This document shows, one piece after another, positions 11,353-29,942 of a DNA stretch of 32,000 nt; position 1 is the stretch's first letter; each line of letters starts with the position of its first letter. The translations under genes and the position numbers were made by a program. The notes under the pieces are model-generated. The model saw only the letters and a list, made by a program, of their open reading frames with translations, was not told the DNA's origin and did not search any database. The DNA comes from an uncultured bacterium (GTDB lineage: Bacteria; Patescibacteriota; Gracilibacteria; UBA1369; PNNO01): assembly GCA_963704705.1 (NCBI GenBank), contig OY969931.1:270001-302000 (forward strand), given 5' to 3'.

Positions 11353-11366
11353 TTAATTTACGCGCT

Positions 11367-12929
11367 ATGCCCCAACCACTTGAAACACATTACCCGGTTA
11401 GACGCGCACTCATAAGCGTGTCGGATAAATCGAATTTAGTGCCTTTTGCTCAAAGGCTTCAAAAGTTAAAAATAGAGATTTTGTCGACTGGCGGAACTGC
11501 AAAAGCTCTTAAGAAAGCCGGCATTAAAGTTTTGGATGTATCGAAATATACAAATTTTCCTGAGATGATGGATGGCAGAGTTAAAACTTTACATCCTAAG
11601 ATTTACGGCGGAATCCTTGCTGTTCGCGATAATGAAGAACATATGGATGATGTTGTTGCCAATAAAATGAAACTGATTGATTTGGTCGTTGTTAATTTAT
11701 ATCCATTTGAAGAAACAGCAGCAAAAGAACATTCCACTCAGGACGAAATAATTGAAAACATTGATATTGGCGGGCCTAGTATGGTGCGGGCTGCAGCAAA
11801 AAATTATAAATATGTAACCATTATTACGGATCCTAAAGATTATACAAAAGTTGCCAAACAGCTTGAAGAAAATGGCGAAGTTTCATATAAAATGCGCGAA
11901 AAACTGGCATTTAAAGCTTTTGACCATACTTGCAGATACGATGAGGCAATCTCTAATTATTTCAGAAAAATTACAGGTGGCAAAGAACTACTTAATCTTC
12001 ATTATGAAAAACAATACAAATTAAGATATGGCGAAAATCCTCATCAAAAAGCGGTTTTCTTTAAAAATCCGAAAAATAAACAACCTAATGTAACAAACGC
12101 AAAACAACTTCAGGGTAAAGAACTTTCTTATAATAATATTATTGATACTGATGCGGCACTGGAGCTGGTAAAGGATTTTCAGGGTCCAACAGCTTGTATA
12201 GTTAAGCACACCAATCCTTGCGGTGTAGCGATAAATCATAAAATCGAAAACGCTTTTATTAAAGCCCATAAAGTTGATCCAATGTCTGCTTATGGTTGTG
12301 TGATTGCGCTCAATCGTGAATGTAACGAAAAAATTGCCGAGTACATTGATAAAGAAAAAATGTTTGTTGAGATTATTGCTGCACCGTCATTTACAAAGGG
12401 TGCAATTAAAAAGTTCGCGAAACGAAAAAATCTTAGACTTTTAGAAACAGGTCCGCTTAAGCGCGATCCACGAAAAATCGATATAAAAAAAGTTGCGGGA
12501 GGTATCTTAATTCAGCATGCAGATACCAAAAAAGTGACTTCAAAAGATCTTAAAGTTGTAAGTAAAAAGAAGCCCACAAAACAGCAGATTATGGATATGC
12601 TTCTTGCAAGAAATATTGTTAAGCATGTTAAGTCCAATTCAGTTGTATTTGTAAAAGATGGTGTAACAACAGGTATCGGCGCAGGCCAGATGTCGCGTGT
12701 TGATGCTGTGAATATGGCTTCATTTAAAGGCGGAGAGCGCAACAAAGGCGCTGTTATGGCCAGTGATGCATTCTTTCCTTTTCCTGATGGTGTTGAGCAG
12801 GCGCACGAAGCCGGAATAGTTGCGATTATTCAGCCAGGCGGCTCAATAAGAGATAAAGAGGTAATAAAGCGTGTTGATGAACTTGGTATGAGTATGGTAT
12901 TTACAGGTATTCGTTCGTTCAAACATTAA
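11367..12929 (+). CDS. purH: Bifunctional AICAR formyltransferase / IMP cyclohydrolase
   Basis: 520 aa. It has the N-terminal MGS-like IMPCH domain (ALISVSDKSNLVPFAQ...STGGTAKAL...GRVKTLHPKIYGGIL) and a full AICARFT C-terminal domain (LRYGENPHQ, KHTNPCGVA, GAGQMSRVD, ASDAFFPFPDG). Confidence 0.95.
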   Translation: MPQPLETHYPVRRALISVSDKSNLVPFAQRLQKLKIEILSTGGTAKALKKAGIKVLDVSKYTNFPEMMDGRVKTLHPKIYGGILAVRDNEEHMDDVVANKMKLIDLVVVNLYPFEETAAKEHSTQDEIIENIDIGGPSMVRAAAKNYKYVTIITDPKDYTKVAKQLEENGEVSYKMREKLAFKAFDHTCRYDEAISNYFRKITGGKELLNLHYEKQYKLRYGENPHQKAVFFKNPKNKQPNVTNAKQLQGKELSYNNIIDTDAALELVKDFQGPTACIVKHTNPCGVAINHKIENAFIKAHKVDPMSAYGCVIALNRECNEKIAEYIDKEKMFVEIIAAPSFTKGAIKKFAKRKNLRLLETGPLKRDPRKIDIKKVAGGILIQHADTKKVTSKDLKVVSKKKPTKQQIMDMLLARNIVKHVKSNSVVFVKDGVTTGIGAGQMSRVDAVNMASFKGGERNKGAVMASDAFFPFPDGVEQAHEAGIVAIIQPGGSIRDKEVIKRVDELGMSMVFTGIRSFKH

Positions 12930-15126: not shown

Positions 15127-17460
15127 ATGGCACAAAAACTCCCATTTTCTCAAATGTCCGATGATGAAATCGAGAAATCCCTAGCTGATAATAAAATAGG
15201 GCTTACGACAGATGAAGCAAAGCAGATTGAGAAAATATTGGGACGCGCGCCAACACTTACCGAAGCAGTGATTTTTGGAATTCAATGTTCAGAACACTGC
15301 GCTTACAGATCAACAAAGAAATATTTAAAAACACTTCCAACAAATGCTCCAAATGTAATTTTGGGGCCTGTTGAAGATTCAGGAATAGTTTCATTTGCTG
15401 AAGCTGAAGGCGAAAGATGGGGACTTATAATGTCACATGAAAGTCATAATCATCCTTCTCAAATTGTGCCTTATGAAGGTGCTGCAACAGGAATCGGCGG
15501 AGTTGTACGCGATGTTTGCTGTATGGGAGGAAAAGTAATAGGAACTGTTGATCCTTTGAGATTTGGGGATATTAAAAAGAATCAGGCGCGAAGAATTGCT
15601 GATGGGGTTGTAGCGGGTGTTGGCGGATATGGAAATCCAATTGGAATTCCAAATTTAGGAGGCGATTGCTATTTTGACCCGCAATATAACGATAATTGCT
15701 TGGTAAATGTTGCTGCCTTCGGTCTTGTAAAAGAATCAGATATAATTCATTCATATGTGCCGGAAGAAGCAGCAGACGTTGGTTACGACATAATTATTGT
15801 TGGGAAACCAACTGATAACAGTGGAATGGGAGGAGCTTCTTTTGCATCATTTGAACTTAATGAGGCTGATAAAGAAGCCAACAAAGGTGCTGTTCAGGAG
15901 CCAAATCCGTTTCTTAAAAGACATTTATTGGTAAGCACTTATGATTTATTCAGAATACTTCAGGAAAATGGTGATATTGGGCGGGTTTCATTTAAAGATC
16001 ACGGAGCTGGCGGAAATGTTTGTTCAACTGTTGAGCAAGTTGCTAAACGCGGCTTTGGAGCAGAAGTTGAAATAGATAAAATTCATACCGGAATGAAAGG
16101 TTTGGATCCTTCGGTTATCGCTTGTTCTGAAACACAGGAAAGATTCGCCTGGACATGCCATCCTGACCTTACACAAATGATTTTAGACCACTATAACAAA
16201 AAGTGGGATTTGCCGAGTGTTGCTGAAAATGCCGGAGCTGTATTGGTCGGAAAAGTGCGTCATGGAAATTATAAATTAACTTACAAAGGTGATGTTGAGG
16301 TTGATGCAAAAGCCGTAGATTTAACAGAGGGAATTCAGTACGACAGAGAAGTTAAAGAACCTGAAAGAGAATTTAAAGAACCCTCAATTAAAGAAAAAAG
16401 TGATTATTCTGATGATTTACTTGAATTGTTAGAGAGCGAAAATGTGGCTTCACGCAGGCCAATTTACGAAAATTATGATAAACAGGTGAGAGGAGATACA
16501 ATTGTAGAGGCAGGTGAAGCTGATGCAGGAATTCTTGCACCTTTACTTGGCGAAGATGTAAGCGATGAGTTGAAAAAGGTTGGAGTTGCATTCAGTTGTG
16601 ATGCGAATCCAAGATACGGAAAAATTTCTCCATATTATCAGGCGTTAAATGCGGTTGTTGAATCAATGAGAAATGTTGCAGCTGTAGGTGCGGAGCCAAT
16701 CGCAATTACAGATTGTTTATGTTATGGGAATCCTGAAAAACCAGAGCAAATGTGGGAATTTGTTGAGGGTGTAAGAGGAGTTAAAGAAGGTTGCGAAGGG
16801 CTTAAACTAAAGGAGTTTCCTGATTCGCCTACCCCGGTAATTTCAGGAAATGTTTCACTTTATAATCATTCAAAAAATGGTGCGATTCCGCCTTCGGCTA
16901 TAATTTGTTGTGCAGGAAAAATTCGCGATTACAATCGTGCAGTAAAAATGCAATTTAAAAAAGCCGGAAGCAAATTATTTATGCTTGGCGAACGACATGA
17001 TGAGCTTGGCGGAAGCGAATTTTATAGATTGCGCGGAGAGTTGGGTGCAAATATTCCAAAACCAGATTTGGCCGAGGTTCAGTCACAGATTTTTGCAATG
17101 GTTGATGCAGTAGATGAAGGTTGCGTAAATTCAGCTCATGACATAAGTGAGGGTGGAGTTGCTGTTTGTCTGGCTGAAATGGCCCTTGGGGGACGCGCAG
17201 AAGGTACGCTTGGGTGCAAGGTGCGTTTAGAAGGAGACTTGGCTGGCTATGCAAAATTGTTTGGAGAAACAGGTGGATTTGTTGTTGAAGTTAGCGATGA
17301 AGCGCGATTTCGTGATATTTGCTCAAAACACGGAGTGAAAGAGATTTTTGAGATTGGTGAGGTTATTGAAGATTCTTTAATTGAGATTGAAGGATTGGCC
17401 AGAGTTACAATTGAAGATGCTCGAGGCCGATGGTGGAATGGATTACGGGAGAAAATGTAG
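15127..17460 (+). CDS. purL: Phosphoribosylformylglycinamidine (FGAM) synthase II
   Basis: 777 aa with a duplicated AIR-synthase-like fold. Motifs include SEHCAYRS, DSGIV, SHESHNHPSQIVPYEGAATGIGGVVRD and HGAGGN. Confidence 0.95.
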   Translation: MAQKLPFSQMSDDEIEKSLADNKIGLTTDEAKQIEKILGRAPTLTEAVIFGIQCSEHCAYRSTKKYLKTLPTNAPNVILGPVEDSGIVSFAEAEGERWGLIMSHESHNHPSQIVPYEGAATGIGGVVRDVCCMGGKVIGTVDPLRFGDIKKNQARRIADGVVAGVGGYGNPIGIPNLGGDCYFDPQYNDNCLVNVAAFGLVKESDIIHSYVPEEAADVGYDIIIVGKPTDNSGMGGASFASFELNEADKEANKGAVQEPNPFLKRHLLVSTYDLFRILQENGDIGRVSFKDHGAGGNVCSTVEQVAKRGFGAEVEIDKIHTGMKGLDPSVIACSETQERFAWTCHPDLTQMILDHYNKKWDLPSVAENAGAVLVGKVRHGNYKLTYKGDVEVDAKAVDLTEGIQYDREVKEPEREFKEPSIKEKSDYSDDLLELLESENVASRRPIYENYDKQVRGDTIVEAGEADAGILAPLLGEDVSDELKKVGVAFSCDANPRYGKISPYYQALNAVVESMRNVAAVGAEPIAITDCLCYGNPEKPEQMWEFVEGVRGVKEGCEGLKLKEFPDSPTPVISGNVSLYNHSKNGAIPPSAIICCAGKIRDYNRAVKMQFKKAGSKLFMLGERHDELGGSEFYRLRGELGANIPKPDLAEVQSQIFAMVDAVDEGCVNSAHDISEGGVAVCLAEMALGGRAEGTLGCKVRLEGDLAGYAKLFGETGGFVVEVSDEARFRDICSKHGVKEIFEIGEVIEDSLIEIEGLARVTIEDARGRWWNGLREKM

Positions 17461-17542
17461 GGTGAGTGAATGTACACCATTTATATCAAAAAGTCCAGTC
17501 GGAATGCTTGAAATCAGGCTGGCTGTTTGTTATATTTTGACT

Positions 17543-18367
17543 ATGAGAAATATACATGAAAAATTTGTTGAATATGGTCGCAATGCTCGAAAATGGATAA
17601 ATGAGTGCAAAATGCTTCTGCCTGAAATTGATAGGCAGAAAATTTGGTATGAAAAAGGATTTGGCAGTATTTATGAGTATGCATCAAAATTGGCCGGATT
17701 AAGCCATGGCCAGGTTCGTGATGCTTTGCGGATTATGAAAAGGATTGAAGATAAGCCGGCTTTGATTGAAGTTGCAAAAGAAAAAGGGATAAATGCTGTG
17801 AGACCGGTAGCAACAATCGCGACTAAAAAAAATCAGGAGTTTTGGGCTGAGAAAGCGCAGATAATGTCCAAAAATACTCTTATGGCATTTGTTCGTTCTA
17901 GTGGGACCGGTCCCACTTTAAATCAAAAGACCATACAAATGACATTAAGTCAAAAAACGGTTGCAAAACTTGAAAAAATTAAAGGAGATCGTGATTGGGA
18001 AGAAATCATGATTGAACTTTTGGAGGCAAAAGCATTGCAAAAACCTGCACCAGTTGAGAGTAAAAACCATTATATCCCTGCTGCAATTAGAAATTTTGTT
18101 ATACAAAAATACCATGGATTGTGCGCTTTTCCTGGTTGCTGCAAAGAATATGAAGAATTGCATCACACTTATAGATTTTCACTTTTTGGCGTGCACGATC
18201 CGGATCAAATTGTTCCGCTGTGCAAATCTCATCATGATTTGGCTCATCATGGCTTGATAGAAAACGAAACAAAATCGCCGGAAAAATGGGAAATTAGGGA
18301 GTTTGCCGAGGTTATACATCCAAATTTCGAAATTGATGAGTATATGCAGAAGTGTAGAAGCGGGTAG
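17543..18367 (+). CDS. HNH endonuclease-domain protein with DUF222-like N-terminal region
   Basis: The C-terminal HNH motif is CAFPGCCKEYEELHHTYRFSLFGVHDPDQIVPLCKSHHDLAHHG. The track ORF starts at 17381 inside purL, so I prefer ATG 17543 (MRNIHEKF...), which sits just after a TTGAAA-17-TATATT element at 17508-17536. ATG 17504 is an alternative start. Confidence 0.75.
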   Translation: MRNIHEKFVEYGRNARKWINECKMLLPEIDRQKIWYEKGFGSIYEYASKLAGLSHGQVRDALRIMKRIEDKPALIEVAKEKGINAVRPVATIATKKNQEFWAEKAQIMSKNTLMAFVRSSGTGPTLNQKTIQMTLSQKTVAKLEKIKGDRDWEEIMIELLEAKALQKPAPVESKNHYIPAAIRNFVIQKYHGLCAFPGCCKEYEELHHTYRFSLFGVHDPDQIVPLCKSHHDLAHHGLIENETKSPEKWEIREFAEVIHPNFEIDEYMQKCRSG

Positions 18368-18384: not shown

Positions 18385-18413
18385 TTGTTTTTTTGGCTGA
18401 TTTATGCTAAAAT
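18385..18413 (+). promoter_or_regulatory. Extended -10 promoter candidate for the 18.4-28.1 kb operon (TTGTTT-17 nt-TGcTAAAAT)
   Basis: TTGTTT at 18385-18390, TG at 18405-18406 and TAAAAT at 18408-18413, lying 24 nt upstream of the ATG at 18437. Confidence 0.4.
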
Positions 18414-18436
18414 ATTAGGAAAATAAAAATAAAAAC

Positions 18437-18925
18437 ATGCAAGAAATAAAAAACACATTTCATGAAGAAGTAATAAGCTGGGAAGCACCAGAATATTTCC
18501 AGCATGAAAAAGGCTGGAAGTGGTATTTAATAGCTGCAATTTTGATTGTGCTATTGGTTATTTATGGAATTTTTACAAACAATTTAACTTTGGCGATTGC
18601 TTTGGTGCTTGCTTCTGCGGTTTATATGATGGTGCATGCGCAGGCTCCACAACATGTAAATGTTATTGTTTCAAGAACAGGAATTAAAGTTGGGCAAAGG
18701 GAATATCCTTATCAAAATATTAAATTTTTCTGGATTATTTATAGTCCGCATAAGATAAAAACACTGAATTTAGAAACAAACTCAAGGTATTTACCTGATA
18801 TTTCAATTCAGCTTGGGGATCAGGACCCGGCTCAACTGCGAACTTTTTTACTTATGCATATAAGGGAAAAAGAAGGTAAGGAGGAAAATTTTGTAGATTT
18901 AATAATGCATATTCTTAAACTTTAA
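18437..18925 (+). CDS. Small two-TM membrane protein with YdbS-like (bacterial PH domain) architecture
   Basis: 162 aa. Two adjacent TM helices (WYLIAAILIVLLVIYGIF and LTLAIALVLASAVYMMV) are followed by a ~95-aa beta-rich domain ending in a helix. The architecture call is by eye only. Confidence 0.6.
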   Translation: MQEIKNTFHEEVISWEAPEYFQHEKGWKWYLIAAILIVLLVIYGIFTNNLTLAIALVLASAVYMMVHAQAPQHVNVIVSRTGIKVGQREYPYQNIKFFWIIYSPHKIKTLNLETNSRYLPDISIQLGDQDPAQLRTFLLMHIREKEGKEENFVDLIMHILKL

Positions 18926-18928
18926 AAT

Positions 18929-20638
18929 ATGAATGGCGGACCAAACAAACCAAAAAAGGGACCTGAGGAAAGTGATGTTGAAAAAACAAAACTCGAATAT
19001 TTAAAAGAACAAAAAAATCAATTAAAAAAAAATACTAAACAATCGTTAAAGGAATTACGTGGTAAAATGCATATGCTTACGATTGGTGCCAGAGGCAGCG
19101 ATATTCCTTCTTTGAGACATGGGAAGTTTTTGGAAGCAGCTGAGAGAAATTTAAAACAAATTGAAGATAAATATTTAAAAGAATTTGATGCTTTGATTGA
19201 CCAAAAGATGTCTTATCAGGATTTGCTTCTTTCTATCGGAAGATTACAACGAAAACAAAAGTCTGAGATCGGCGGTTATAAAGATGCGATTGTATATGCA
19301 GTAAGGGCTTTTGCTGGTGCAAAAGGACAAATTGATCAGAAAGAATATGCATATTTTTATACAATTCTTGAAAATATTAATACTTTAAGCGAGCATTATG
19401 GCACTGATATTGGTGTTTTGTTTGCTCACATTCAGCAGGATAATTTGAATAAACAGGAATGGGATAAAATTTGCGAATATATTAAACAGTATCCTTATAC
19501 CAGAAATGTAACCAATGGCGGGGATGCGATAAAACTTTCAGTTACTGCTTTTTTATTTAAAGCACTTGATCAGAATCAAAGATACAAAGCTGTTATTGAG
19601 TATTCAAAAAGAAATGGACCAAGAGAAGCTGAGGAGCTTGCCGATTCCTTAGTTAAAGCAAATGTATTGAATATAAAGCAATATGAACAACTTATGAAAG
19701 AAATCCATGGCGACAAATATTCAATGGATGCAAATAAAGAAAAGGAAATTAGAGAAGCTCAGAACAATACAAGGAGATTATTGCGGGGTGTAAATCGAAA
19801 ACTTGGAAGTTCAATGTATATTAACGGCGCTGAAAGAGTTTTAAACAGAAAAAATATTGCGTCATTTATTATGACGGGTCTTGGAACTTTAGGCATGATA
19901 ACAAATTATTTATCACATTTGCAGTCCGGAAAAGGTTTGGGAAGATTGGTTGCCGGATTCAAGTCTCCTCATTTTATGTTTAGTGCTGCGGTTGCCGCAG
20001 GCGGAGTACATATGCTTCAAAGAGGAATGACTGCGGGATCACATGGAGAAAGTTATTTTAGCACCCTGTTAAAAGGAGAAAAGAGATTAACCAATCCATT
20101 TGGAGTTGGAAAAAACGCAGAAGTTAAAGATGGTCATTTTGCGGAATTGGTAAATATTTTTAAAGATCACAACCTGGTTGAAAAATACTTTTTGGAACAA
20201 AAAGGCTTTGATGATTTAGCTGATTTCCATATGGCTAAGAGGTTTGATAGAACAAAACGAGCAGTGGAAATAAGGGAAGAAAAGGGTAAAAGAATGGGGG
20301 AGGGTATGAATTTATTTGATGAATATTTACAGTTTATTGAGAAAAAAAGAGGAAAAAACTGTCCAGAGGCGATTATGTTTCGCGAAACAGGAAATCGTTA
20401 TGGTAAAGCCATAATGACAAGATATTTGGTACGAATAGCAGCTGCTCAGCAGGCTCTTGGAATTACAACTTCTGAATATTTCAATAAAACAAATATGAGA
20501 AGTCAGTTATTTACTCATAAAGACCTGCTTTTACATAGAGAGGGCGTTAGGTCTATTGCAAGGTCGAAATTGCCTGAAGTAAGAGCGCAGAAGGCTGCTG
20601 ATGAAGCTAAAAAGAAAAAACAAAAACAAACTAAATAA
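18929..20638 (+). CDS. Uncharacterised 569-aa protein: coiled-coil N-terminus, helical body, central Gly-rich hydrophobic hairpin
   Basis: Long clean ORF 3 nt after the previous stop, with no signal peptide. The only hydrophobic stretch is aa ~310-363 (IASFIMTGLGTLGMITNYL...LVAGFKSPHFMFSAAVAAGGVHML; nt 19856-20017). The C-terminus is Lys-rich. No enzymatic motif was recognised. Confidence 0.75.
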   Translation: MNGGPNKPKKGPEESDVEKTKLEYLKEQKNQLKKNTKQSLKELRGKMHMLTIGARGSDIPSLRHGKFLEAAERNLKQIEDKYLKEFDALIDQKMSYQDLLLSIGRLQRKQKSEIGGYKDAIVYAVRAFAGAKGQIDQKEYAYFYTILENINTLSEHYGTDIGVLFAHIQQDNLNKQEWDKICEYIKQYPYTRNVTNGGDAIKLSVTAFLFKALDQNQRYKAVIEYSKRNGPREAEELADSLVKANVLNIKQYEQLMKEIHGDKYSMDANKEKEIREAQNNTRRLLRGVNRKLGSSMYINGAERVLNRKNIASFIMTGLGTLGMITNYLSHLQSGKGLGRLVAGFKSPHFMFSAAVAAGGVHMLQRGMTAGSHGESYFSTLLKGEKRLTNPFGVGKNAEVKDGHFAELVNIFKDHNLVEKYFLEQKGFDDLADFHMAKRFDRTKRAVEIREEKGKRMGEGMNLFDEYLQFIEKKRGKNCPEAIMFRETGNRYGKAIMTRYLVRIAAAQQALGITTSEYFNKTNMRSQLFTHKDLLLHREGVRSIARSKLPEVRAQKAADEAKKKKQKQTK

Positions 20639-20644
20639 TATTAT

Positions 20645-22096
20645 ATGCAGCAATTAGGAGCATCATTTGTACAATCATTTTTGGTTCCTTACATAAAAAA
20701 CAATATCCTCGGAAATGTTGATAAAGACGAGAGGCTGCAGCGTGAAATAAGATTTGATACAGTACCTTCTCCAACTGATATAGATGGTCTTGAAACATCG
20801 TATTTTACAAATACAGGTACAGTGCTTGATACAGATATGGCTTTAAGAAAAGTGTTCTTTAATGAATTTATAGAATTTATAAACAGACAAAAGAATATTG
20901 CTAACGGCAATGTTTATCAGCTTGCTTTCAGATTATTACCTGATGCAAAAACAAAAACTTATTCAAAAGACGCGACAAATAATCTGGAAAAATTCGGGTT
21001 TGAAGCTGCTAAAGCAATGGAAGATCATGTTGCAGCTGAATTAATTAGACAAAAAGAAGCAAACGGTGAAATTAAAAAAGAACAAGCTGAAGATGACCGA
21101 AGAAAACTTAAAGAAGGTAAATTGATTTTGGTTAGAGGCAAAGACAGTAATTTTAAATACAAATCAGAAGATGATATTAAAAGAGCTATTGCAAGTCGCG
21201 AAAAAGCCATTGAATTCTGGGATGATGTTTTGGCAGATGATTCTCCGCAGGGGCCAGTTGCTTATGGAATGAATCCTTTGGAAATTCCAGAACAGGGTAA
21301 GGAAGAAAAGGGTTCAACATTAGCTGGTTTGCAAAAACAGGTCTGGACAGGAATTGCGATAAAAGCTGAGAAAGAGCTTGAAAATAATGGTATTTATGTT
21401 GAGGCGAGGCTTAAAGTTGATCAAAACGGGGTAGCGTATGGAACCGTTCAAGATCGCAGAGGGGTTGCGCTTAAAGGTGAAGTGAGTGTAATTAAACCAG
21501 GCAAACGAAACTATAAGTTTACATTTGCTAATCAGCCGTCTAAGAAATTTTTCGTTAATCAAGATGAATTAAAAACAGAGTTTAAAGATAAAAAACATTC
21601 AGCAAACGAAGTTTATGCAAATAAACAAATATCTGAAAGAAAAAGAGAAGAATTAATAACAAGAGTTGGTATTCCTGCAAAGGGAGGAGTACAAATGATC
21701 CCGAAAACGCCAAAAGTAGCATTTACACAAACTGAAGCCGGACAAACCAATACTCCGGCAAATCAACAGGTCTATGAAGGTCCGGTACCAATTGGTGTTC
21801 AAGCCGGAAAGAGAGCAAGTGTTCAAACAGAACAAGGTGCGGGCGCGGTTCCTGCTGGTTATCCTTCAGGACCAATAGAAGCAAAAGAGGCATTTGAACA
21901 AAAAAGATTGGCACAAGAAACAGAAGTAAACGCTGGATCAGGAAGCAGGTTATTCAAGTCGAAAAAAGCCCAGCAAGGCGGCCTGCAATCAGGTTCGCGA
22001 TTATTCAGAAACAGCCCGATAGGTAGAGTAATGAAATATTATGCGGCAACTGCAGCTGGTTTTGGTGGTGCTTTGGGATTCTACATTTTCTCTTAA
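20645..22096 (+). CDS. Uncharacterised 483-aa C-terminally tail-anchored protein
   Basis: Clean ORF with no signal peptide. A single C-terminal TM, YYAATAAGFGGALGFYIFS, forms the last 19 aa (nt 22037-22093). A duplicated SGSRLF peptide precedes the anchor. No motif was recognised. Confidence 0.75.
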   Translation: MQQLGASFVQSFLVPYIKNNILGNVDKDERLQREIRFDTVPSPTDIDGLETSYFTNTGTVLDTDMALRKVFFNEFIEFINRQKNIANGNVYQLAFRLLPDAKTKTYSKDATNNLEKFGFEAAKAMEDHVAAELIRQKEANGEIKKEQAEDDRRKLKEGKLILVRGKDSNFKYKSEDDIKRAIASREKAIEFWDDVLADDSPQGPVAYGMNPLEIPEQGKEEKGSTLAGLQKQVWTGIAIKAEKELENNGIYVEARLKVDQNGVAYGTVQDRRGVALKGEVSVIKPGKRNYKFTFANQPSKKFFVNQDELKTEFKDKKHSANEVYANKQISERKREELITRVGIPAKGGVQMIPKTPKVAFTQTEAGQTNTPANQQVYEGPVPIGVQAGKRASVQTEQGAGAVPAGYPSGPIEAKEAFEQKRLAQETEVNAGSGSRLFKSKKAQQGGLQSGSRLFRNSPIGRVMKYYAATAAGFGGALGFYIFS

Positions 22097-22116
22097 ACTA
22101 AAATAAACTTAAAATA

Positions 22117-24447
22117 ATGAAAAAACAAAAATATATATCAAAGAAATGGTTCATATTACTGGCAGTTGTACTGCTTTTAATTCCAGTAACTGCATATGCG
22201 GCATTAGGAGATGCAGCTTCAGCTGGTACAAATCAGGCAGCTACAGTAAGTGGTCAGGCAGTAAGTTCTTTTAATCAGGTACTTAATGCCATGGTTGGGT
22301 TTTTAAGCCAGGTGTTGCAGTTGTTACAAAAGATTTTATGGCCTTTATTCCTGGCGATCGGTGGATTAATGAATAATGATCTCTTATTTGGTGCCGGCAT
22401 GGAAGAAAGATTATTAAGTATATGGGTGCAGATTAGAAATCTTGTGAATATAATTTTTGTTGTTGCATTGCTTGGAATAGCTTTATATAACGTAACTGGT
22501 TTTTCAAAAGAAGGTGATTATCAATTGAAAACATTTTTACCCAAGTTTGTTATTGCTTTGATTTTAGTGAATTTTACTTTTATAGGACTTAAGTTTGTAT
22601 TGGATGTAAGCAATGTTTTAACAAATGTTGTTTTTACTCTTCCTCAGTCTATAAGTGCTGAATTGGCCACAACGCAGGTTTATTTACCAAAAGAAGCTGA
22701 ATTGGCTGACTATGTAAAAGCTAATAATATATCTGATAAAGATTTGAAAAAGATACAAACCAATATAGATAGCGTGTGCAAGGCAATGTTTGGAACTTAT
22801 GAACAAGCCAAAGCAAAAAAAACTGCTTATCTTGCACAAACAAATAAAGATCCAAAGCAAGACCCTTCTAATTTTTATTGCGAAGTGGATACAAATAAAA
22901 ACGTTTATGTATTAACCGATAACGGAAGAAAATTTTTCCAAAAATATTCTTCAAGAAATTCCCCGTTGGTATTGGCAGTTCAAATGATGAAGGTTGTTGA
23001 TGTTGATAAAATTAGTGATGCATTAAAAGGTACTTCACCAAACCTTTCTAAATTAACATTTAATATTTTATTTTCAGTAATTATTTATTTGATTTACGCT
23101 GTGGCGTATGTGGTCTTATTTGTTGTGCTATTGGCCAGATTAGTATTTTTATGGATTATAATTGCACTTTCTCCTTTGATAGCACTTAAAATAGTTTTTT
23201 CAAAACTCCCAACGGGTGATAAAGACTTTTTGAGTTTATTTATTACAAACGCGTTTGTTCCGGTATTAATTGGTATTCCCTTAACAATAGGTTACATAAT
23301 GCTTGGAGCTTTGCAGGATGCGAGCAGTCCTATTACGCAGGATTTTAATTTGAATACATTGTTTAATCTTGAAACTTCGGGTGTTTCTGATTTGCAGACT
23401 ATGGTGATTGCATTTGGTGCGGTTGCTGTAGTTTGGTTTGGTGTATTTGCAGCAGCTGAAAAATCAATTGCTGCAAGCGTAGTCCAAGCTATTAAGAGCA
23501 GGGTTAGAGGTGCTGGTACAACATTGGCAAGAGCAACAAGATTCTTACCAATCATTCCAGCAGCAGCCGGCAATAAAGGAAGGGCCAGTATTGCTCAATT
23601 AAGCAGTTTGGCTACTGCACCATTAAGACGGTTGCAAGAACGATATGGGGGTGAATTTGGTGGAAAAACAATTTCTAAATATAATATTGAAGCTTTGGCT
23701 AGAACTAAAAGAACTGGTTCAGCCAGAGAATTACAACAATTCTTGGCTCAAGGTGTCACTAATCCTAAGTTCCAAAAGCCCTTGGGTCAAGTTGTAGGAA
23801 GATGGAGTCGAAGTGGTACAAAAGAACAAAAAAAACTCGCTCAAGAAATATCAGCTAAGATTGGTCCGGCAGGTTTAAGAAGATTTGAACGAGGTCAATT
23901 AAAACCTGAAGAAGCAAGACAAATTCAGCAATATGCTCAAGGCCAGATTGCTTCTCCGCTTGGTACTCCTAGAACAACAAAGCCGGGTGCTGCTAAGACT
24001 CCAGCAAATGCTGATGCGCAAAGAGCACAAAAATTTAATCAGGTACGGCATGCAGCTGAATTAGGATATATTCCAACAACTAATGAAGCATATACTGCAT
24101 CACAAGCAGGCAAAACAGCTGAATTTGATGCATATGCCAAAGGTCATACCAATGAAATGAAAGTATATGCAGCAATCAGTGCATCAAATGATTCTCTTAA
24201 AAATGCACAGGATAAAGCTAAAGAAATTTCACGTAAAAATATGACGGAAGCTGAGGTTAAAGATGCTGCCGCACAACTAAAAACACACCTTACTAGTGCG
24301 AAGACAACTTTAAAAGGAAAAGGTTTAAGTCCGGCTCAAATAAAGAAAGTATTACAAGATATCGTTCAAAAACAATATCAAAATAAACAAACTGATTTCT
24401 ATAAAACTGATTCAGGAAAAGCTATTAGAGATTTAATAAATAGCTAA
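22117..24447 (+). CDS. Uncharacterised 776-aa polytopic membrane protein with signal peptide and ~325-aa basic/Gln-Ala-Lys-rich cytoplasmic tail (VirB6/TrbL-like topology only)
   Basis: The N-terminus MKKQKYISKKWFILLAVVLLLIPVTAYA|A is signal-like. By eye there are ~7 further hydrophobic helices at aa ~55-86, 104-125, 140-165, 313-338, 340-362, 371-398 and 428-447. A ~140-aa loop (aa 170-310) contains two Cys. The tail runs from aa ~450 (nt 23464) to the end. Confidence 0.8.
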   Translation: MKKQKYISKKWFILLAVVLLLIPVTAYAALGDAASAGTNQAATVSGQAVSSFNQVLNAMVGFLSQVLQLLQKILWPLFLAIGGLMNNDLLFGAGMEERLLSIWVQIRNLVNIIFVVALLGIALYNVTGFSKEGDYQLKTFLPKFVIALILVNFTFIGLKFVLDVSNVLTNVVFTLPQSISAELATTQVYLPKEAELADYVKANNISDKDLKKIQTNIDSVCKAMFGTYEQAKAKKTAYLAQTNKDPKQDPSNFYCEVDTNKNVYVLTDNGRKFFQKYSSRNSPLVLAVQMMKVVDVDKISDALKGTSPNLSKLTFNILFSVIIYLIYAVAYVVLFVVLLARLVFLWIIIALSPLIALKIVFSKLPTGDKDFLSLFITNAFVPVLIGIPLTIGYIMLGALQDASSPITQDFNLNTLFNLETSGVSDLQTMVIAFGAVAVVWFGVFAAAEKSIAASVVQAIKSRVRGAGTTLARATRFLPIIPAAAGNKGRASIAQLSSLATAPLRRLQERYGGEFGGKTISKYNIEALARTKRTGSARELQQFLAQGVTNPKFQKPLGQVVGRWSRSGTKEQKKLAQEISAKIGPAGLRRFERGQLKPEEARQIQQYAQGQIASPLGTPRTTKPGAAKTPANADAQRAQKFNQVRHAAELGYIPTTNEAYTASQAGKTAEFDAYAKGHTNEMKVYAAISASNDSLKNAQDKAKEISRKNMTEAEVKDAAAQLKTHLTSAKTTLKGKGLSPAQIKKVLQDIVQKQYQNKQTDFYKTDSGKAIRDLINS

Positions 24448-24463
24448 AAACAAAAACTAAAAA

Positions 24464-27400
24464 ATGAAAAACCCATTCCTAAAACTAGCGAACTTGCTGT
24501 TCAGAAGTCATGAAAATGACTATCTGTTTGGTGAGAAAAGATTTGCTTATTTTGCCGGATCAAATGGTCCGGAGGATGATGATGATATTGAAAAAGAAGC
24601 TAAAGCTAAAGAACGTAAAGAAGTTCAAAAAGAAGAATTACCGGAAATAATTGAGCCGGAAGTTTTTGAAACAAGATCTGCGGTGGTAGAACAGGTTCAT
24701 TCGTTATTTGATCAGATTGAATATACATTGCCACCTGACGTTGACCCCGGACGGCTTAAAAAAGCCAAAGAAACAGTTAATAAAAATGCTGCAGAAATTG
24801 AAATATATGAAAAGCAATTTGATACAAAAAGTTTGGAATTCACCGGTGAAATGGGTGTTGAATCGACCGAGGAGCTTCAAGATGAGATTTGGAAAGTTTT
24901 GTACAGTGTTGTTCCTGAATTTAAGAACCAAGCTTTAAAGGAGTATAAGAGTTTTAATCCTGATTTGATTCCTCCTACTTTAAGCATGAAACTTAAAAAA
25001 GGTTTGGCTGCAATTTGGAAGAAGAATACCGAAAAAAAGTTAAGTTCGCGATTTTTAAATAAATTTATTGCTGATTCATTAAAAATAATGGATAAGGTTG
25101 CTGAGCATGAATTTGAAATGTTTAAACCAATTATCGAGGTAAAAGAGGTAATGTGGGATATGTATGACCATAGAAAGAAACAAAATGTCGAAGAAATGAT
25201 GCTTAGAGGTGCTATAAATTATTCAGGACTTCCCTTGGAAAAGGGTATGGAATATACGGGTATTGAAAATGTAATTACCGGATGGAAAGAAAATCATGAG
25301 CCAATAGAAGAAAAACATTCTAAGAATTGGGTTGTCACAGATGTATATATTAACAAAGAACGGTTTGTAGATCCTGAAGATCTAAAAAATAAAATAAGAA
25401 TGAAAATGACAGGTGTATGGGTTGCACTTAGCAGCGGCAATCAAGTTTATAGAATGCCAATGAACAGATTGCCGGAATTTATTAATTTGCACAGAATAAA
25501 GCCAATAGTAAAAAATAAAGAAGATTTGTACAATAATGTACCGCATTTAAAAGAAATGAATATTGAGTTAAAACCTGGAATGGAAATAGAATATGATGAT
25601 TGGGTTTACAATAAAGATAAGCAAAAATATGTTGCTGTTCCAAAAAAAGTAAAAATTAAATATTTAGATGATAAAACCGTTAAGCTAGATAAGGAAATTT
25701 CGATATTTATAAGTAATGATCCTGAAGATAGACCCAAGGATGAAGTAAGCTTAGGTGAATTTTCAATTTGGTTAAACAGAAATATTGCAGTTCCAACAAT
25801 GAATGTTGATGAACTAAAAACTAAGCTTAATGAGCACTATGAATTTATGAATACGAAATACAAACGTAATCCGGAATGTCATGATCCGATTGTTTTAGTC
25901 AAAGGTGAAGTGATTTATGCAGATGCTCCGGGAAATCCTCTTTATCAAATAGTTAATGATCCTTTAAGTGATGGTATGGTTAAGTTAAGTCAGGGCTTGC
26001 AATTCACGTTCCCGAAATTCCTGAAATGGGTTTATGAATATGGAATGGAACCTTTTAAACCCGAACTTGAAGCAAACAAGGTTAAATATTATATGAAAGG
26101 TTCTAATCGGGCTGCAGAAAAAGCAATGAAGAATGCGCAGCTTACACAGGATGGCTTCCTTAAAGAAGGAATATGGAGGGACACATTTAAAAAATTAAAA
26201 GAAAAAGGTATTGAAGGCATTCATGATGGACCTGAATTAAATATAAAACAAGATGTCAAAAATACACCTATGAAAGTGAGCCATAGCTTTTTACGTGAAT
26301 TTATAGGTAATACTTATTTAATGGATATAGACAGCATATGGCAATTGTTTAAAACCGGTAAAGAATACTACACTCGTAACTGGAGACGAAGACAAAAAGC
26401 CAGATATTCAGCTATTGGTAAAGGTGTGCCTTGGTTTGCTAACGAGTTCGAACGTATTAACCAGCAAGCTGAAACCGAAGAAATGAATCAGTTCAAAGAA
26501 GCCATGGATCAATGGGGTATCAGGCAGATAGAAGAAACCTTATATGAAACAAATAATAGAGATCAACTTAAAGCTTGTTTTAGTGCATTAGCTGAAAAAG
26601 GACAAATCAGATGGGATGACAGAAGATTGTGGGATGCAATCAATAAGTTTACTGACATCAATCATAAAATTCCAATGCCCGAAGAAGGTCAGGATCCAAA
26701 CACTCCTTTCAGGGAAGGAACAGGTCAGTTATTTCAGGGTATTGATGTGGCGGGCAAGGCTCCGGTTGATTTTATACCTGAAGCACTCGATTCTTTATGG
26801 GGTGAAAGTAGTTATGTCAGCTGGAAACGTCAAAACGATAGTGCTATGGAAGATGGTATTTCTAAATCGTACAACAAAGCGGAAGAATTGGAGAGTGATC
26901 CGAATAATACCGGTGGTATCGCAAAGGAACTTCAAAACCTGCTAGAGCGTCATCTTAGAGGTGAATATGTTGACCCTACTGAGTTTGAAGGAATGTTGCG
27001 CTTCATAGTTGAAAAAGGTAAAGCAGGAGGAAAACATAAAATGTATTATCTTTTAATGGGAACAAGTGCAAAATATCCGCCAGGTGATCCAAACGGACGC
27101 TCAATTATGGGTTGGGACAGGGTTGGTAGATTTATCAGTAAATATTGTAATCAGTTCCCTGCAATGGATTATTTTAGTGCAACTAATACTGATCCAAAAC
27201 GTGATTCTGCAACCGGAGAAATATTTACAAGAGCATGGGTTAAAAAAGATTTCGATTATTTAACAAAACCATGGGTGGATAGATTTGTTCAGACCGGCAA
27301 AGCGGATCCGCCAAGTGATGCAGATAAATTTATGTGGAGAGAAGTACTTACTTCTGACGCTTTCCAGAAGCGTTTGGAAAAAGGTATTAATAATGCGCAA

Positions 27401-28147
27401 AATATTGACCATGACGATTCGCCATACTTTATACCCGCGCTTAAAGAATCAGCAATTGAAACAGCTTGCGCGGCAACAGGTGGAGAAACTAAGAAATTCA
27501 CAATCCAGGGTTATAAAAATGCATATATCGGTTTTGGCTTAAGAATGAGAAGTCTTAAAGAAAAATATGATGAAGAATCTGGTTTCAAAGCAAAAGGGCA
27601 AGTGTCATTTGAAAATCAATTTTTACAAAAACTTGTTTCAACTTTTCAATCATATATGAGATACGACAGTATTTTGGATAATCGTTATAGAAGACGTGAA
27701 GAATCAAGGCTTCAGAGATTTAGTTCGCACGATTACAGATCAGGTTGTATATGGGATGCAAACAGAGCACTTTTGACTTATAAAGATGAAATGCGAGATT
27801 TAATAAAAGAAATAGCACGGGCATATGGTGAAGGTGAAAATAAAGATTTGATAGAAACTCCATTCAAACGGTTGCCTTCTACAAAAGGAAACCCTGGTTT
27901 AGAGAGTGAACAAAAGAAAATCGAGCAATCAATTGAAAATTTCAGTGAAACATTTGAAAAAATGGTAATGAAAGATGGAGGTAGAAAATTTTTAAGGATA
28001 ATTCAGGATCACAAATTCGAATCAGAAAAACTTGGTGATTTGAAACAGGAAGATCTTATCCGAAACAGGATGAATATGGAGGTAATGGAAGGTATGCGCA
28101 CGCGGGAAGCAGAAGAAGCTACAATTTCTGAAAATCAGGAAGAGTAA
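24464..28147 (+). CDS. Uncharacterised 1227-aa soluble acidic protein
   Basis: A 3.7-kb uninterrupted ORF, the longest in the window. It has no signal peptide or TM and an acidic N-terminal linker (EDDDDIEKEAKAKERKEVQKEELPEIIEPE). I found no P-loop, HExxH, HNH, CxxC or other recognisable motif. Confidence 0.8.
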   Translation: MKNPFLKLANLLFRSHENDYLFGEKRFAYFAGSNGPEDDDDIEKEAKAKERKEVQKEELPEIIEPEVFETRSAVVEQVHSLFDQIEYTLPPDVDPGRLKKAKETVNKNAAEIEIYEKQFDTKSLEFTGEMGVESTEELQDEIWKVLYSVVPEFKNQALKEYKSFNPDLIPPTLSMKLKKGLAAIWKKNTEKKLSSRFLNKFIADSLKIMDKVAEHEFEMFKPIIEVKEVMWDMYDHRKKQNVEEMMLRGAINYSGLPLEKGMEYTGIENVITGWKENHEPIEEKHSKNWVVTDVYINKERFVDPEDLKNKIRMKMTGVWVALSSGNQVYRMPMNRLPEFINLHRIKPIVKNKEDLYNNVPHLKEMNIELKPGMEIEYDDWVYNKDKQKYVAVPKKVKIKYLDDKTVKLDKEISIFISNDPEDRPKDEVSLGEFSIWLNRNIAVPTMNVDELKTKLNEHYEFMNTKYKRNPECHDPIVLVKGEVIYADAPGNPLYQIVNDPLSDGMVKLSQGLQFTFPKFLKWVYEYGMEPFKPELEANKVKYYMKGSNRAAEKAMKNAQLTQDGFLKEGIWRDTFKKLKEKGIEGIHDGPELNIKQDVKNTPMKVSHSFLREFIGNTYLMDIDSIWQLFKTGKEYYTRNWRRRQKARYSAIGKGVPWFANEFERINQQAETEEMNQFKEAMDQWGIRQIEETLYETNNRDQLKACFSALAEKGQIRWDDRRLWDAINKFTDINHKIPMPEEGQDPNTPFREGTGQLFQGIDVAGKAPVDFIPEALDSLWGESSYVSWKRQNDSAMEDGISKSYNKAEELESDPNNTGGIAKELQNLLERHLRGEYVDPTEFEGMLRFIVEKGKAGGKHKMYYLLMGTSAKYPPGDPNGRSIMGWDRVGRFISKYCNQFPAMDYFSATNTDPKRDSATGEIFTRAWVKKDFDYLTKPWVDRFVQTGKADPPSDADKFMWREVLTSDAFQKRLEKGINNAQNIDHDDSPYFIPALKESAIETACAATGGETKKFTIQGYKNAYIGFGLRMRSLKEKYDEESGFKAKGQVSFENQFLQKLVSTFQSYMRYDSILDNRYRRREESRLQRFSSHDYRSGCIWDANRALLTYKDEMRDLIKEIARAYGEGENKDLIETPFKRLPSTKGNPGLESEQKKIEQSIENFSETFEKMVMKDGGRKFLRIIQDHKFESEKLGDLKQEDLIRNRMNMEVMEGMRTREAEEATISENQEE

Positions 28148-28163
28148 GAACAATGGTTTACCT

Positions 28164-29942
28164 TTATTTTCGTTCTTTGATTTCTTTTACAAGCTTTTTC
28201 ATGAAGCTGTCAGCTTTATATCCGGTCTGCTTTTTAGTTTTGTAGTCTCTTATCGCTAATTCTTTTGCTTCAACTTCTTTGTCTCCAATTACAGCCATAT
28301 AAGGGATTTTTTTCATTTCAGCTTCTCGGATTCTTTTTCCTAAGGTTACATCCGATGGCATGATTAAAGTTCGTACGCCCATTTCAGCGAATTTTTGCAT
28401 TATTTCTTCTGCGTATTTTTCATGTGGTTGAGCAACAGGTAAAAATGCAATTTGCATCGGCGACATCCATGCCGGAAAAGCACCCGCATAGTGCTCAATC
28501 AAAAACCCAATCATTCTTTCATGTGTTGAGAGCGGTGCTCTGTGAATACAAATTGGTGTTTTTTCCTGACCGTCTTTATCTGTGTAAGTTAGATTAAATC
28601 GCATTGGTACTGCAAAATCGAGCTGATTCGTAGCAAGAGTAAATTCACGGCCGATTACACTCCAAACCTGTACATCGATCTTTGGTCCGTAAAAAGCAGC
28701 TTCATCTTCAGCTTCAACAAATGGAACTTTTAATTTTTTTAATACTTTGCGAACCAGATCTTCGGTTTTAATCCATAGGTCTTCATTGTCTACATACTTT
28801 TTGCCCAATCCTTCTTTTGCGTGTTTAGAAAGCCGCATTTCGTATTTTTCAATTCCAAAAATATCAAAATATTCAAGATATAATTGGATTACTTTTGCAA
28901 ACTCATCTTCAAATTGTTCTTCAGTACAGTAAATATGAGCATCATTCATAGCCATTGATCTAACTCTCATCAAACCGAATAAAGCTCCTGAATCCTCATA
29001 TCTGTAACAATGGCCATATTCTGCAAGGCGCAAAGGCAGGTCTTTGTAACTTTTTGGAACTGCAGCATAAATTTTATGATGATGTGGACAATTCATTGCT
29101 TTTAAATAGTATTTCTCATTATCCAGATCCATTGAAGGGAACATACTTGCTTCATAATATGGCAGATGACCTGACCTGTGGTACAAAGCGTCTTTAGCAA
29201 TGTGAGGAGAACGTACGCGCTTATAACCCTGCTCTGCTTCTTTTTCTTTTGCCAGATTTTCAAGTTCATCAGCGATTATTGTTCCGTTTGGAAGCCATAA
29301 TGGAAGGCCAGCTCCAACTTCTTCGTCAAATGTGAATAGTTCGAGTTCTTTGCCGAGTTTTCTGTGGTCGCGTTTTTTGGCTTCCTCAAGCTGTTTTAGG
29401 TAGTCGTCGAGTTCTTTTTGTGTTTCAAAACAAACTCCGTAAATTCTTTGAAGCATTGGATTTTCTTCAGTTCCTTTCCAGTAAGCACCAGCAACATGTG
29501 TAAGCTTAAATGCCTTTATTTTGCCTGTTGATTCAACATGCGGACCTTCACACATATCAACAAAAGTTCCTTCTCCTTTTTGATCAACATTCTCAAAAAA
29601 TTGAATTTCTTTTTCACCTGCTTTTCCCAGGTCATTTGCAGCTTCAACTTTATAATCCTGTTTTATTGTCTTTAAAAATTCAACTGACTCTTTTACTGGT
29701 TTTACGTATTTTTTAAATTTCTGATTTTGTTTGATTATATGCTTCATTTTCTTCTCAATAAGCGGCAAATCTTCAGGAATCAAAGTTCGTGGCAGCTCAA
29801 AGTCATAATAAAATCCGTTTTCAATAGCCGGACCAAACCCCAGTTTAGCCTCAGGGAACATTTCAAGAACCGCTTGTGCAAGCACATGAGCGCATGAATG
29901 ACGCATTTTTTCTAAATCCGCAGAAGCCGATGTTTTTTTCAT
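28164..29942 (-). CDS. thrS: Threonine--tRNA ligase (lacks N-terminal TGS domain)
   Basis: 592 aa. It starts ~13 aa before the editing-domain HxxxH (RHSCAHVLAQAV). Class II catalytic motifs (YRYEDSGALFGLMRVR, FTLATNQLDF) and an anticodon-binding domain are present. Confidence 0.95.
   Translation of the reverse strand: MKKTSASADLEKMRHSCAHVLAQAVLEMFPEAKLGFGPAIENGFYYDFELPRTLIPEDLPLIEKKMKHIIKQNQKFKKYVKPVKESVEFLKTIKQDYKVEAANDLGKAGEKEIQFFENVDQKGEGTFVDMCEGPHVESTGKIKAFKLTHVAGAYWKGTEENPMLQRIYGVCFETQKELDDYLKQLEEAKKRDHRKLGKELELFTFDEEVGAGLPLWLPNGTIIADELENLAKEKEAEQGYKRVRSPHIAKDALYHRSGHLPYYEASMFPSMDLDNEKYYLKAMNCPHHHKIYAAVPKSYKDLPLRLAEYGHCYRYEDSGALFGLMRVRSMAMNDAHIYCTEEQFEDEFAKVIQLYLEYFDIFGIEKYEMRLSKHAKEGLGKKYVDNEDLWIKTEDLVRKVLKKLKVPFVEAEDEAAFYGPKIDVQVWSVIGREFTLATNQLDFAVPMRFNLTYTDKDGQEKTPICIHRAPLSTHERMIGFLIEHYAGAFPAWMSPMQIAFLPVAQPHEKYAEEIMQKFAEMGVRTLIMPSDVTLGKRIREAEMKKIPYMAVIGDKEVEAKELAIRDYKTKKQTGYKADSFMKKLVKEIKERK

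Follow-up and report, generated by a model that had tools for sequence, protein, structure and literature searches.

What is the role of five tightly spaced genes whose products have no significant match among characterized proteins and which are located in the middle of an otherwise ordinary housekeeping region? The question arises from a 32,000-nucleotide (nt) stretch of contig OY969931.1 (assembly GCA_963704705.1, positions 270,001 to 302,000), which belongs to an uncultured member of the Gracilibacteria (Patescibacteriota) and is called the window in the following. Its five open reading frames (ORFs) of interest are located on the plus strand and encode proteins of 162, 569, 483, 776 and 1227 amino acids (aa); they are named g1 to g5 here in their order along this strand (Table 1). 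The intergenic gaps measure 3, 6, 20 and 16 nt, and thrS converges on g5 from the opposite strand, 16 nt downstream. An earlier examination of this DNA, which was made from its letters and predicted reading frames (the sequence-only reading), had described this arrangement with exact coordinates and regarded the genes as one lineage-specific unit without assignable products. Our comparative analysis is in agreement with this view: the five genes constitute a single operon that represents a real, class-wide and previously undescribed membrane system. As regards its function, a connection to characterized proteins is offered solely by g4, the layout of which is that of the VirB6 proteins of type IV secretion systems (T4SSs), although a common ancestry could not be demonstrated.

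Conservation of the operon in Peregrinibacteria, Peribacteria and Gracilibacteria

The class-wide conservation of the cluster is the main new result of the current study. The distribution of g4 was determined with each species represented by a single genome and with a detection tuned to standard-code lineages; relatives were revealed in 122 genomes, from which 80 loci were fetched. The g4 family comprises 78 close cluster representatives, and the genomes harboring it are nearly all labelled Peribacteria, Peregrinibacteria, Gracilibacteria or Patescibacteria, as expected for the lineage-specific system that had been proposed. Roughly 70 genomes at the species level, from Peregrinibacteria, Peribacteria and Gracilibacteria, share the gene order of the window. 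Dozens of other genomes thus contain homologues of all five ORFs in unchanged order, which shows them to be real genes and not chance reading frames. The operon has descended vertically in the entire standard-code clade of Peregrinibacteria, Peribacteria and “Gracilibacteria”. It occupies ~9.7 kb, corresponding to 0.7% of the genome in bacteria with genomes of ~1.4 Mb, and its intact retention at the same place in such small genomes across the whole class argues for an important function.

The presence of the individual genes was counted over 83 loci, many of which are cut by contig ends. Searches with tblastn detected g4 in 83 of 83 loci, g1 in 73, g5 in 69, thrS in 42, recF in 35 and purL in 20, and g2 and g3 in only 12–15 loci, because the latter two diverge too fast for this method. 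Iterated searches with profile hidden Markov models (HMMs) unite the positional equivalents of g2, and likewise those of g3, into single families, and the resulting counts amount to 71 loci for g1, 71 for g2, 48 for g3, 77 for g4 and 63 for g5. None of the genes ever occurs in more than one copy per locus; the sole double match reflects a g5 gene that is split in two (locus L015). The typical cluster consists of a gene for 160–210 aa followed by genes for ~500–570 aa, ~300–620 aa (or absent), 700–900 aa and 1060–1400 aa. Well conserved are g1, the membrane core of g4 and the C-terminal ~500 aa of g5, whereas g2 and g3 evolve fast, and some lineages possess a four-gene version without g3.

The cluster is embedded in a housekeeping block with the order rpsF–rpsR–purL–cluster–thrS–recF. 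Its flanks vary, with either thrS–recF or the ATP synthase operon on one side and purL or directly rpsR on the other, but the internal order g1–g2–(g3)–g4–g5 is constant and g1 is always the first gene (71 of the 83 loci). The genes hence co-occur and stay adjacent, whereas a lack of adjacency, which would have spoken against the unit proposed from the sequence, was noted for g5 in four loci (L017, L067, L072 and L079). In locus L055 a single ORF of 1269 aa (8465–12274) comprises a weak g3-like region (domain E 0.004) and a full g4; it could be a g3–g4 fusion or the result of a lost stop codon.

The conserved order requires consideration of the scenario that five independent lineage-specific proteins are mere neighbors, held together by the general synteny of small genomes. 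The flanking housekeeping genes are syntenic too, so that conservation of gene order is not unique to the cluster, and both the dispensability of g3 in some lineages and the separate g5 of the four loci mentioned above would be easily understood. This scenario is nevertheless highly improbable. The genes follow each other on one strand at a distance of 3–20 nt with no internal terminator (a consensus scan called none within g1–g5), and their order persists irrespective of whether the neighbor is thrS (42 loci), the ATP synthase operon (other loci) or purL (20 loci). Moreover, every product is membrane-associated or has termini of a docking type, and the possible g3–g4 fusion in L055 would hardly be expected of unrelated genes.

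A mobile element or an anti-phage defence island, which is suggested by the presence of an HNH endonuclease-like ORF directly upstream of g1, is effectively refuted. The g4 core did not match any of 72,556 plasmids (tblastn), the g4 profile found no relative in 2.9 million viral contigs, and neither PADLOC nor PHROGs provided a match for the five proteins. Conjugative or mobile elements are marked by a relaxase, an integrase or a plasmid or phage context together with a patchy spread. The cluster, in contrast, is present as a single copy per locus at a fixed chromosomal position across the clade, with purL (or rpsR) on one side and thrS (or ATP synthase) on the other, and the GC content of g1–g5 (0.32–0.40) and their positive GC skew correspond to those of the surrounding plus-strand genes. 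The HNH-like ORF itself (phrog_119, E 9e-7), as called, extends into the 3' end of purL. Just two further loci (L005, L014) have such a gene at this site, and several more carry one at a different place. It gives the impression of a sporadic mobile HNH gene that was inserted beside the operon and, being independent of the cluster, was rejected as a member of the system.

Table 1. Position of the g1–g5 genes, their subregions and neighboring features in the window (nt, first letter of the window = 1)
Feature	Position	Strand	Basis or remark
Extended -10-like element TGcTAAAAT	18405..18413	+	read from sequence; possible operon promoter
g1, 162-aa membrane protein	18437..18925	+	ORF calling; hydropathy; family alignment
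g2, 569-aa basic protein	18929..20638	+	ORF calling; iterated HMM, 69–71 loci
g2 Gly-rich segment, ~aa 300–365	19826–20023	+	
g3, 483-aa basic protein	20645..22096	+	ORF calling; HMM family in 42–48 loci
g3 C-terminal segment, aa 459–483	22019–22093	+	
g4, 776-aa polytopic protein	22117..24447	+	ORF calling; hydropathy; AlphaFold2; 44-member alignment
g4 external loop, aa 176–315	22642–23061	+	
g4 basic tail, aa 476–776	23542–24444	+	
g4 string GGEFGGKT, aa 511–518	23647–23670	+	rejected; probably chance
g4 tail bundle, aa 520–776	23674–24444	+	AlphaFold2
g5, 1227-aa acidic soluble protein	24464..28147	+	ORF calling; alignments
g5 conserved C-terminal domain, aa ~600–1110	26261..27793	+	alignments; family core
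g5 DHDD motif (D982-H983-D984-D985)	27407..27418	+	38 distant members
thrS	28164–29942	-	
HNH endonuclease-like ORF	17381–18367	+	phrog_119; rejected as system member
Transketolase, N- and C-terminal genes	1488–2435 and 2392–3306	-	44-nt overlap
Tandem DUF1246 + DUF1297 paralogues	6322–7440 and 7494–8510	-	presumably PurP-type
LysM + peptidase M23 gene	9712–10992	+	

Architecture of the five proteins

None of the five proteins has a significant match in Pfam, NCBIfam, PHROGs or PADLOC (the latter with nothing at E ≤ 0.1). Searches of PDB sequences with the single proteins and with the family profiles of all five retrieved only coiled-coil or compositional noise, and the AlphaFold2 (AF2) models that were compared with the PDB by Foldseek did not obtain a match at E ≤ 0.001 (best E 0.8 for g4 and 0.05 for g5). 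Family-wide Pfam scans of g1–g5 provided only weak matches to DUF6232, DUF5673 and DUF3093, all of them in g1, and four of the five families are without a detectable relative of known function. Literature searches on Peregrinibacteria and Peribacteria, secretion and VirB6/TrbL in the paper library used retrieved no published description of the cluster. The proteins had initially been considered unassignable and the four large ones free of recognizable motifs. The first statement is corroborated by these searches, in which no high-probability match to a known family appeared, and the second holds with the exception of a Walker A-like string (GGEFGGKT) in the tail of g4. This string is located outside the conserved alignment columns, in a part of the model with a predicted local distance difference test (pLDDT) value below 50; it was rejected and is probably due to chance.

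According to topology prediction the products are located in the membrane or on its cytoplasmic face around the polytopic g4, just as the sequence-only reading had envisaged. The first of them, g1, starts with a conserved N-terminal peptide (W15, A17, E19), which is followed by the expected transmembrane (TM) hairpin at about aa 26–68 and a C-terminal domain of ~90 aa; the alignment of 62 family members has a mean column identity of 36%. Sub-threshold Pfam matches were found to DUF6232 in 28 of the 62 members (best 6.3e-5), to DUF5673 in five (best 2.6e-6) and to DUF3093 in seven. All Pfam matches of g1 from the window are below the curated cut-offs, as exemplified by the 21.3 bits obtained for DUF6232 with a cut-off of 27.4, and the family profile has no match in the PDB. 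The three families, none of which has a known function, are presumably pleckstrin homology (PH)-like. The C-terminal domain of g1 may be PH-like, with which the weak matches would be compatible. The order of a TM hairpin and a ~90-aa domain is shared with bPH proteins of the YdbS–YdbT type, from which g1 differs insofar as its window matches stay under the Pfam cut-offs.

The basic proteins g2 (isoelectric point 9.7, net charge +31) and g3 (isoelectric point 9.2) represent the fast-evolving part of the system, and neither family has a match in Pfam or the PDB. The sole well-conserved feature of g2 is a Gly-rich, moderately hydrophobic segment at a relative position of 0.60 (interquartile range 0.58–0.62), in which N299 and N326 are nearly invariant. 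A Gly-zipper-like hydrophobic hairpin had been predicted here; the Gly-rich segment is indeed conserved, but its character as a TM helix is only borderline (median Kyte–Doolittle hydropathy 1.5). The variable g3 protein starts with a conserved peptide, which is followed by a beta-rich middle part, a linker rich in Pro, Gln and Gly, and a Gly-rich segment at the C-terminus. Its extreme C-terminus is the most hydrophobic stretch, in accordance with the tail anchor assumed previously, but the hydropathy is again borderline (median 1.48), and the segment is swapped for an amphipathic-looking end in some subfamilies.

The polytopic g4 begins with a signal-peptide-like stretch (aa 1–30, with VTAYA preceding and AL following the putative cleavage site), and continues with five TM helices, between which a loop of ~140 aa is exposed on the outside, and with a basic, helical cytoplasmic tail that carries a net charge of +25. 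This topology corresponds to the one that had been deduced from the sequence. Strong conservation was found in the external N-terminal segment (W75-P76 and, further on, NDLLFGxGMEER), and invariant residues are associated with the TM helices (R107, N111, N152-F153, D163, R341). The S352-P353 motif is invariant as well, as are C221 and C255 in the external loop, which is probably disulphide-bonded. The sequence of the tail is poorly conserved. In the AF2 model (mean pLDDT 79.7) an all-helical membrane core is combined with a loop domain containing a beta hairpin and with a C-terminal helical bundle, the tail part of which is modelled with pLDDT values above 90.

The tail of g4 is the starting point for an explanation that has no connection to secretion, namely, an envelope-biogenesis or membrane-shaping machine (division, cell shape, remodelling) with g4 as an anchor the tail of which binds or curves the membrane, g2 and g3 as peripheral scaffolds and g5 as an enzyme. 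The tail shares with F-BAR domains (PACSIN/syndapin, GAS7) the basic character and the shape of an elongated helical bundle, and F-BAR domains of PACSIN/syndapin are the top PDB matches of the g4 family profile. With E values of 0.011–0.07 these matches are non-significant, and Foldseek retrieved the F-BAR domain of GAS7 at E ~6 with TM-scores of 0.05–0.12, so that a significant match in sequence or fold was not obtained. Division proteins use C-terminal membrane-targeting helices that are comparable to the hydrophobic or amphipathic end of g3, and class-wide vertical inheritance in a housekeeping context, without ATPase or T4SS parts nearby, is what would be expected of a core cell function. 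We still regard this explanation as unlikely. The F-BAR matches are far from significance and typical of the bias in coiled-coil composition, which suffices to explain them, the sequence of the tail is poorly conserved, and only loose synteny ties the genes to those for division or the cell wall. Finally, the external Cys-containing loop and the polar TM residues R107, D163 and R341 are better suited to a channel or receptor than to a passive anchor.

The largest protein, g5, lacks TM segments and has a net charge of -18, in line with its initial description as acidic and soluble. A conserved peptide (aa 1–33) and an acidic linker (aa 34–80) precede a variable N-terminal half with helical and beta elements, and the conserved C-terminal domain contains a large set of invariant or nearly invariant residues (R638, R642, E670, K703, A704, K712, G713, W717, E842, G852, K853, R970, K973, N1019, G1023). 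The pair G852-K853 is invariant, but the rest of a Walker A motif is not conserved. In an alignment of 38 distant members, which have no match in Pfam or the PDB, D982 and D985 of the DHDD motif are invariant and H983 and D984 nearly so. With its many invariant charged residues, including DHDD, the C-terminal domain has the appearance of an enzyme rather than of a scaffold, and the motif is a candidate metal-binding or catalytic site. An exhaustive HMMER search with the g5 profile against 1.84 billion representatives resulted in 563 matches at E ≤ 1e-3 (at the level of 50% identity), 497 of them at E ≤ 1e-10. The relatives among the 150 matches listed are mostly 1100–1550 aa long, the few shorter ones probably being fragments, and the distant ones among the matches listed align only with the C-terminal half of the profile. 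Two relatives were checked, including the most distant among the matches listed, and both are located in the same context on Peribacteria-type contigs. When the g5 alignment was used for another word-index search, no additional homologues were retrieved, so that the alignment for AF2 remained shallow with nine sequences; the resulting model of g5 is poor (pLDDT 60.5).

The enzyme-like appearance of g5 would also fit the uptake or export of small molecules or polymers, e.g., host lipids, nucleotides or a surface glycan, in which case g4 would be the permease and the C-terminal domain of g5 a metal-dependent transferase or phosphodiesterase that modifies the cargo. The density of invariant charged residues in the C-terminal domain of g5, with DHDD among them, and the invariant charged residues within or beside the TM helices of g4 are compatible with this function, and Peribacteria have been reported to be devoid of fatty-acid synthesis and to devote considerable resources to the sugars of the envelope (PMC4736985). 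A transporter is nonetheless quite unlikely, given that the proteins have no similarity to transporter or transferase families in Pfam, NCBIfam and the PDB, that the operon lacks an energizing module (ABC or other ATPase) and that the g5 model is too poor to reveal an active site.

Possible relationship of g4 to VirB6 and type IV secretion

The sequence-only reading had proposed three possible roles, i.e., an unconventional translocation or cell-contact conduit, a scaffold for membrane remodelling or division, and an apparatus related to episymbiosis, among which we mildly favor the conduit. More specifically, the five products may form one membrane complex in which g4 serves as a VirB6-like translocation platform, possibly the diverged translocon of the T4SS of this clade, a reading to which we assign a probability of about 0.35. 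After removal of the signal peptide, g4 would have its N-terminus outside, cross the membrane five times, display the loop of ~140 aa and retain a basic helical domain of ~300 aa in the cytoplasm, and its oligomerization would create the translocation conduit or platform. The TM hairpin protein g1, with its small cytoplasmic domain, and the basic, weakly membrane-inserting g2 and g3 would act as adaptors at the membrane face. The acidic g5 would dock onto the basic tail of g4 by means of its acidic linker and the conserved peptide at its N-terminus, and its C-terminal domain would supply an enzymatic or hub activity. The complementary charges that the sequence-only reading had assumed for these two partners would be in accordance with the net values of +25 for the g4 tail and -18 for g5. 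In the most far-reaching version the T4SS of class Gracilibacteria would have its “missing” VirB6 in g4, in an extremely diverged form and partnered by a VirB4 that is encoded elsewhere.

In VirB6 proteins the N-terminus is located outside, five TM helices are combined with a large central loop on the external side, and the C-terminus, which is frequently extended, is cytoplasmic. The hydropathy of g4 and its AF2 model exhibit this membrane architecture, a layout that is not unique to VirB6. The N-terminal signal or TM segment, the N-out/C-in orientation, the odd number of TM helices, the large external loop between TM pairs, the long cytoplasmic C-terminal domain and a similar length of 700–900 aa are shared with the VirB6-like proteins of Gram-positive (MPF-FATA) systems, namely, Orf15 (Tn916), ConG (ICEBs1), TcpH (pCW3) and PrgH (pCF10). 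The architecture of g4 is accordingly the same as that of VirB6-like proteins, whereas homology is not established.

For the sequence comparison TrwI (R388), TcpH, PrgH, Orf15 and ten Orf15-like proteins were used as VirB6-like references. Directly upstream of nine of the ten Orf15-like proteins the annotation contains an “ATP-binding protein”, presumably VirB4-like, and on the downstream side most of them have a cell-wall hydrolase. A precomputed Pfam flag “TrbL_3 (faint)” is attached to several g4 relatives. Alignments of the g4 profile with single VirB6-like proteins did not exceed a probability of 7% (hhalign), but its best scores among the 114 ORFs of four conjugative elements were obtained with Orf15, TcpH and PrgH, which are all VirB6-like. 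The comparison with a 12-member Orf15-like profile resulted in a probability of 43%, an E value of 2.4e-4 and a score of 46.7, which is higher than that of all 62 controls. The 81 aligned columns span TM4 to TM5 and superimpose the SP-x8-P of g4, whose Pro-x8-Pro follows TM4, on the P-x8-P of the Orf15 family with its invariant Pro. The maximum score was 33.1 for block shuffles and 24.8 for column shuffles, and a low-stringency alignment made with a broader set of 78 g4 members is colinear from the signal peptide to the last TM helix over 352 columns. When, conversely, the Orf15-like profile was used as query, the top eight ranks and 11 of the top 13 went to members of the g4 family in competition with 21 further polytopic proteins encoded at the same loci, with median scores of ~33 for g4 and ~18 for the controls.

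A considerable number of results weigh against the VirB6-like conduit. Reversed-profile controls scored 40.5 and 36.0 in comparison with the real 46.7, and the broader 78-member alignment of g4 yielded only 28.7, with 27.3 and 25.8 for the reversed controls. As the latter values are so close to each other, the signal may reflect nothing but the composition of TM helices and the shared layout. The TrbL/VirB6 models of Pfam had no match at E ≤ 1 in 44 g4 members (hmmscan), and the Foldseek comparison of g4 with the PDB gave no significant match. The VirB4-family ATPase is the signature protein of T4SSs and is usually located within 20 genes of the other parts; tblastn searches for VirB4, VirD4, VirB3 and VirB8 within ±10 kb at the 83 loci and in the window (1.44 Mb in total) were negative, with four VirB4 (TrwK, TcpF, PrgJ, Orf16), two VirD4 and two FtsK-like coupling proteins as ATPase queries (E ≤ 0.01). 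Conserved motifs of P-loop NTPases, i.e., Walker A (GxxxxGK[ST]) together with Walker B, are missing from g1–g5. Comparisons of the g1, g2 and g3 profiles with TrwM, PrgI, TcpD, TcpE, Orf17, PrgL, TrwG, TcpC, Orf13 and PrgD–G remained at noise level (hhalign), with the known VirB3- and VirB8-like parts ranking only 9th to 142nd, and those of g5 with all plasmid ORFs gave noise as well. The genomic context differs in the same sense: in real T4SS loci the VirB6 gene is located after virB4 and before the cell-wall hydrolase, whereas g4 is found among dark genes, in a non-mobile housekeeping context without ATPase or hydrolase.

The T4SSs of Patescibacteria provide a background that makes the VirB6 reading conceivable. 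They are chromosomal, lack a relaxase and are thought to be repurposed for a host-dependent lifestyle (Quinonero-Coronel et al. 2025, PMC12102498). In class Gracilibacteria VirB6 homologues were reported as “absent”, “suggesting extreme sequence divergence”, VirB3 and TrsD are not located beside virB4, and the T4SS parts are dispersed (PMC12102498). A diverged VirB6 that is encoded elsewhere is conceivable for this very reason. The g1–g5 operon shares with these systems the phylum and the chromosomal location, but VirB4, TrsD, PrgI/VirB3, VirB2-like pilins and the coupling protein are all absent in and near the operon. If g4 were a diverged VirB6 that went unseen in the survey of 2025, the operon would encode the membrane translocon that is lacking so far, together with four new parts, for a T4SS that is essential to related lineages for living as epibionts.

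The alternative is that g1–g5 form an undescribed envelope machine that is unrelated to T4SSs and characteristic of the clade, with five families of new fold, a new enzyme domain of ~500 aa in the DHDD-containing giant and a core function such as host contact, remodelling or envelope assembly. This comes close to an even bet. Because four of the five families are without detectable relatives of known function and the fifth fails or leaves unsettled the tests that define its closest family, we place the system outside the known kinds. Should g4 not belong to VirB6, the operon would represent a membrane machine of a novel type that includes a new family of giant enzymes. Either way, the g4 core and the DHDD motif of g5 are testable targets in bacteria with a cell biology that has hardly been explored.

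Genomic setting and variants of the cluster

The promoter-like extended -10 element that had been noted ahead of the operon is present as TGcTAAAAT, located 24 nt upstream of the g1 start codon (ATG). It is a sequence match only: a consensus promoter scan identified no -35 match and left the element uncalled. No meaningful repeats occur within the operon, and a comparison of the window with the RNA families of Rfam was negative. Apart from the features described above, the window consists of housekeeping genes, namely, an aminotransferase, a split transketolase, two PurP-type genes, a LysM–M23 peptidase, purH, purL, thrS and recF. The transketolase is divided into genes for the N-terminal and C-terminal parts. 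The tandem paralogues with DUF1246 and DUF1297, which are accompanied by purH and purL in the same window, presumably encode PurP-type enzymes, i.e., archaeal-style ATP-grasp enzymes of purine biosynthesis. The gene with LysM and peptidase M23 domains has counterparts in loci L002 (165–1484) and L099 (1993–3273) and shares with the operon a conserved syntenic block of the order M23–yidD–purH–bacA–rpsF–(ssb)–rpsR–purL–cluster. M23 and LysM domains are also frequent in the VirB1-like hydrolases of Patescibacteria T4SSs according to published work.

In some lineages a sixth dark gene that is absent from the window follows g5, as in loci L003 (15936–18074) and L028 (15421–17655). These genes belong to at least two unrelated families of ~650–710 aa and ~750–860 aa without a Pfam match. 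The loci L067, L072 and L079 represent a deep, divergent subclade with g1, a divergent g2-like gene and g4, and without g5 within 10 kb. Their g2-like gene encodes 690–740 aa, and only that of L072 matched, weakly, the hydrophobic core of g2. Upstream, on the minus strand, these three loci harbor an ORF for a polytopic protein of ~830–900 aa, which was among the best control matches of the Orf15-like VirB6 profile with scores of 23.6–31.5. Three further loci with the cluster (L046, L064 and L081) are labelled Nitrospirota or Oceanicoccus; because they exhibit the thrS–recF context that is typical of other loci, they are probably mis-binned contigs of Patescibacteria.

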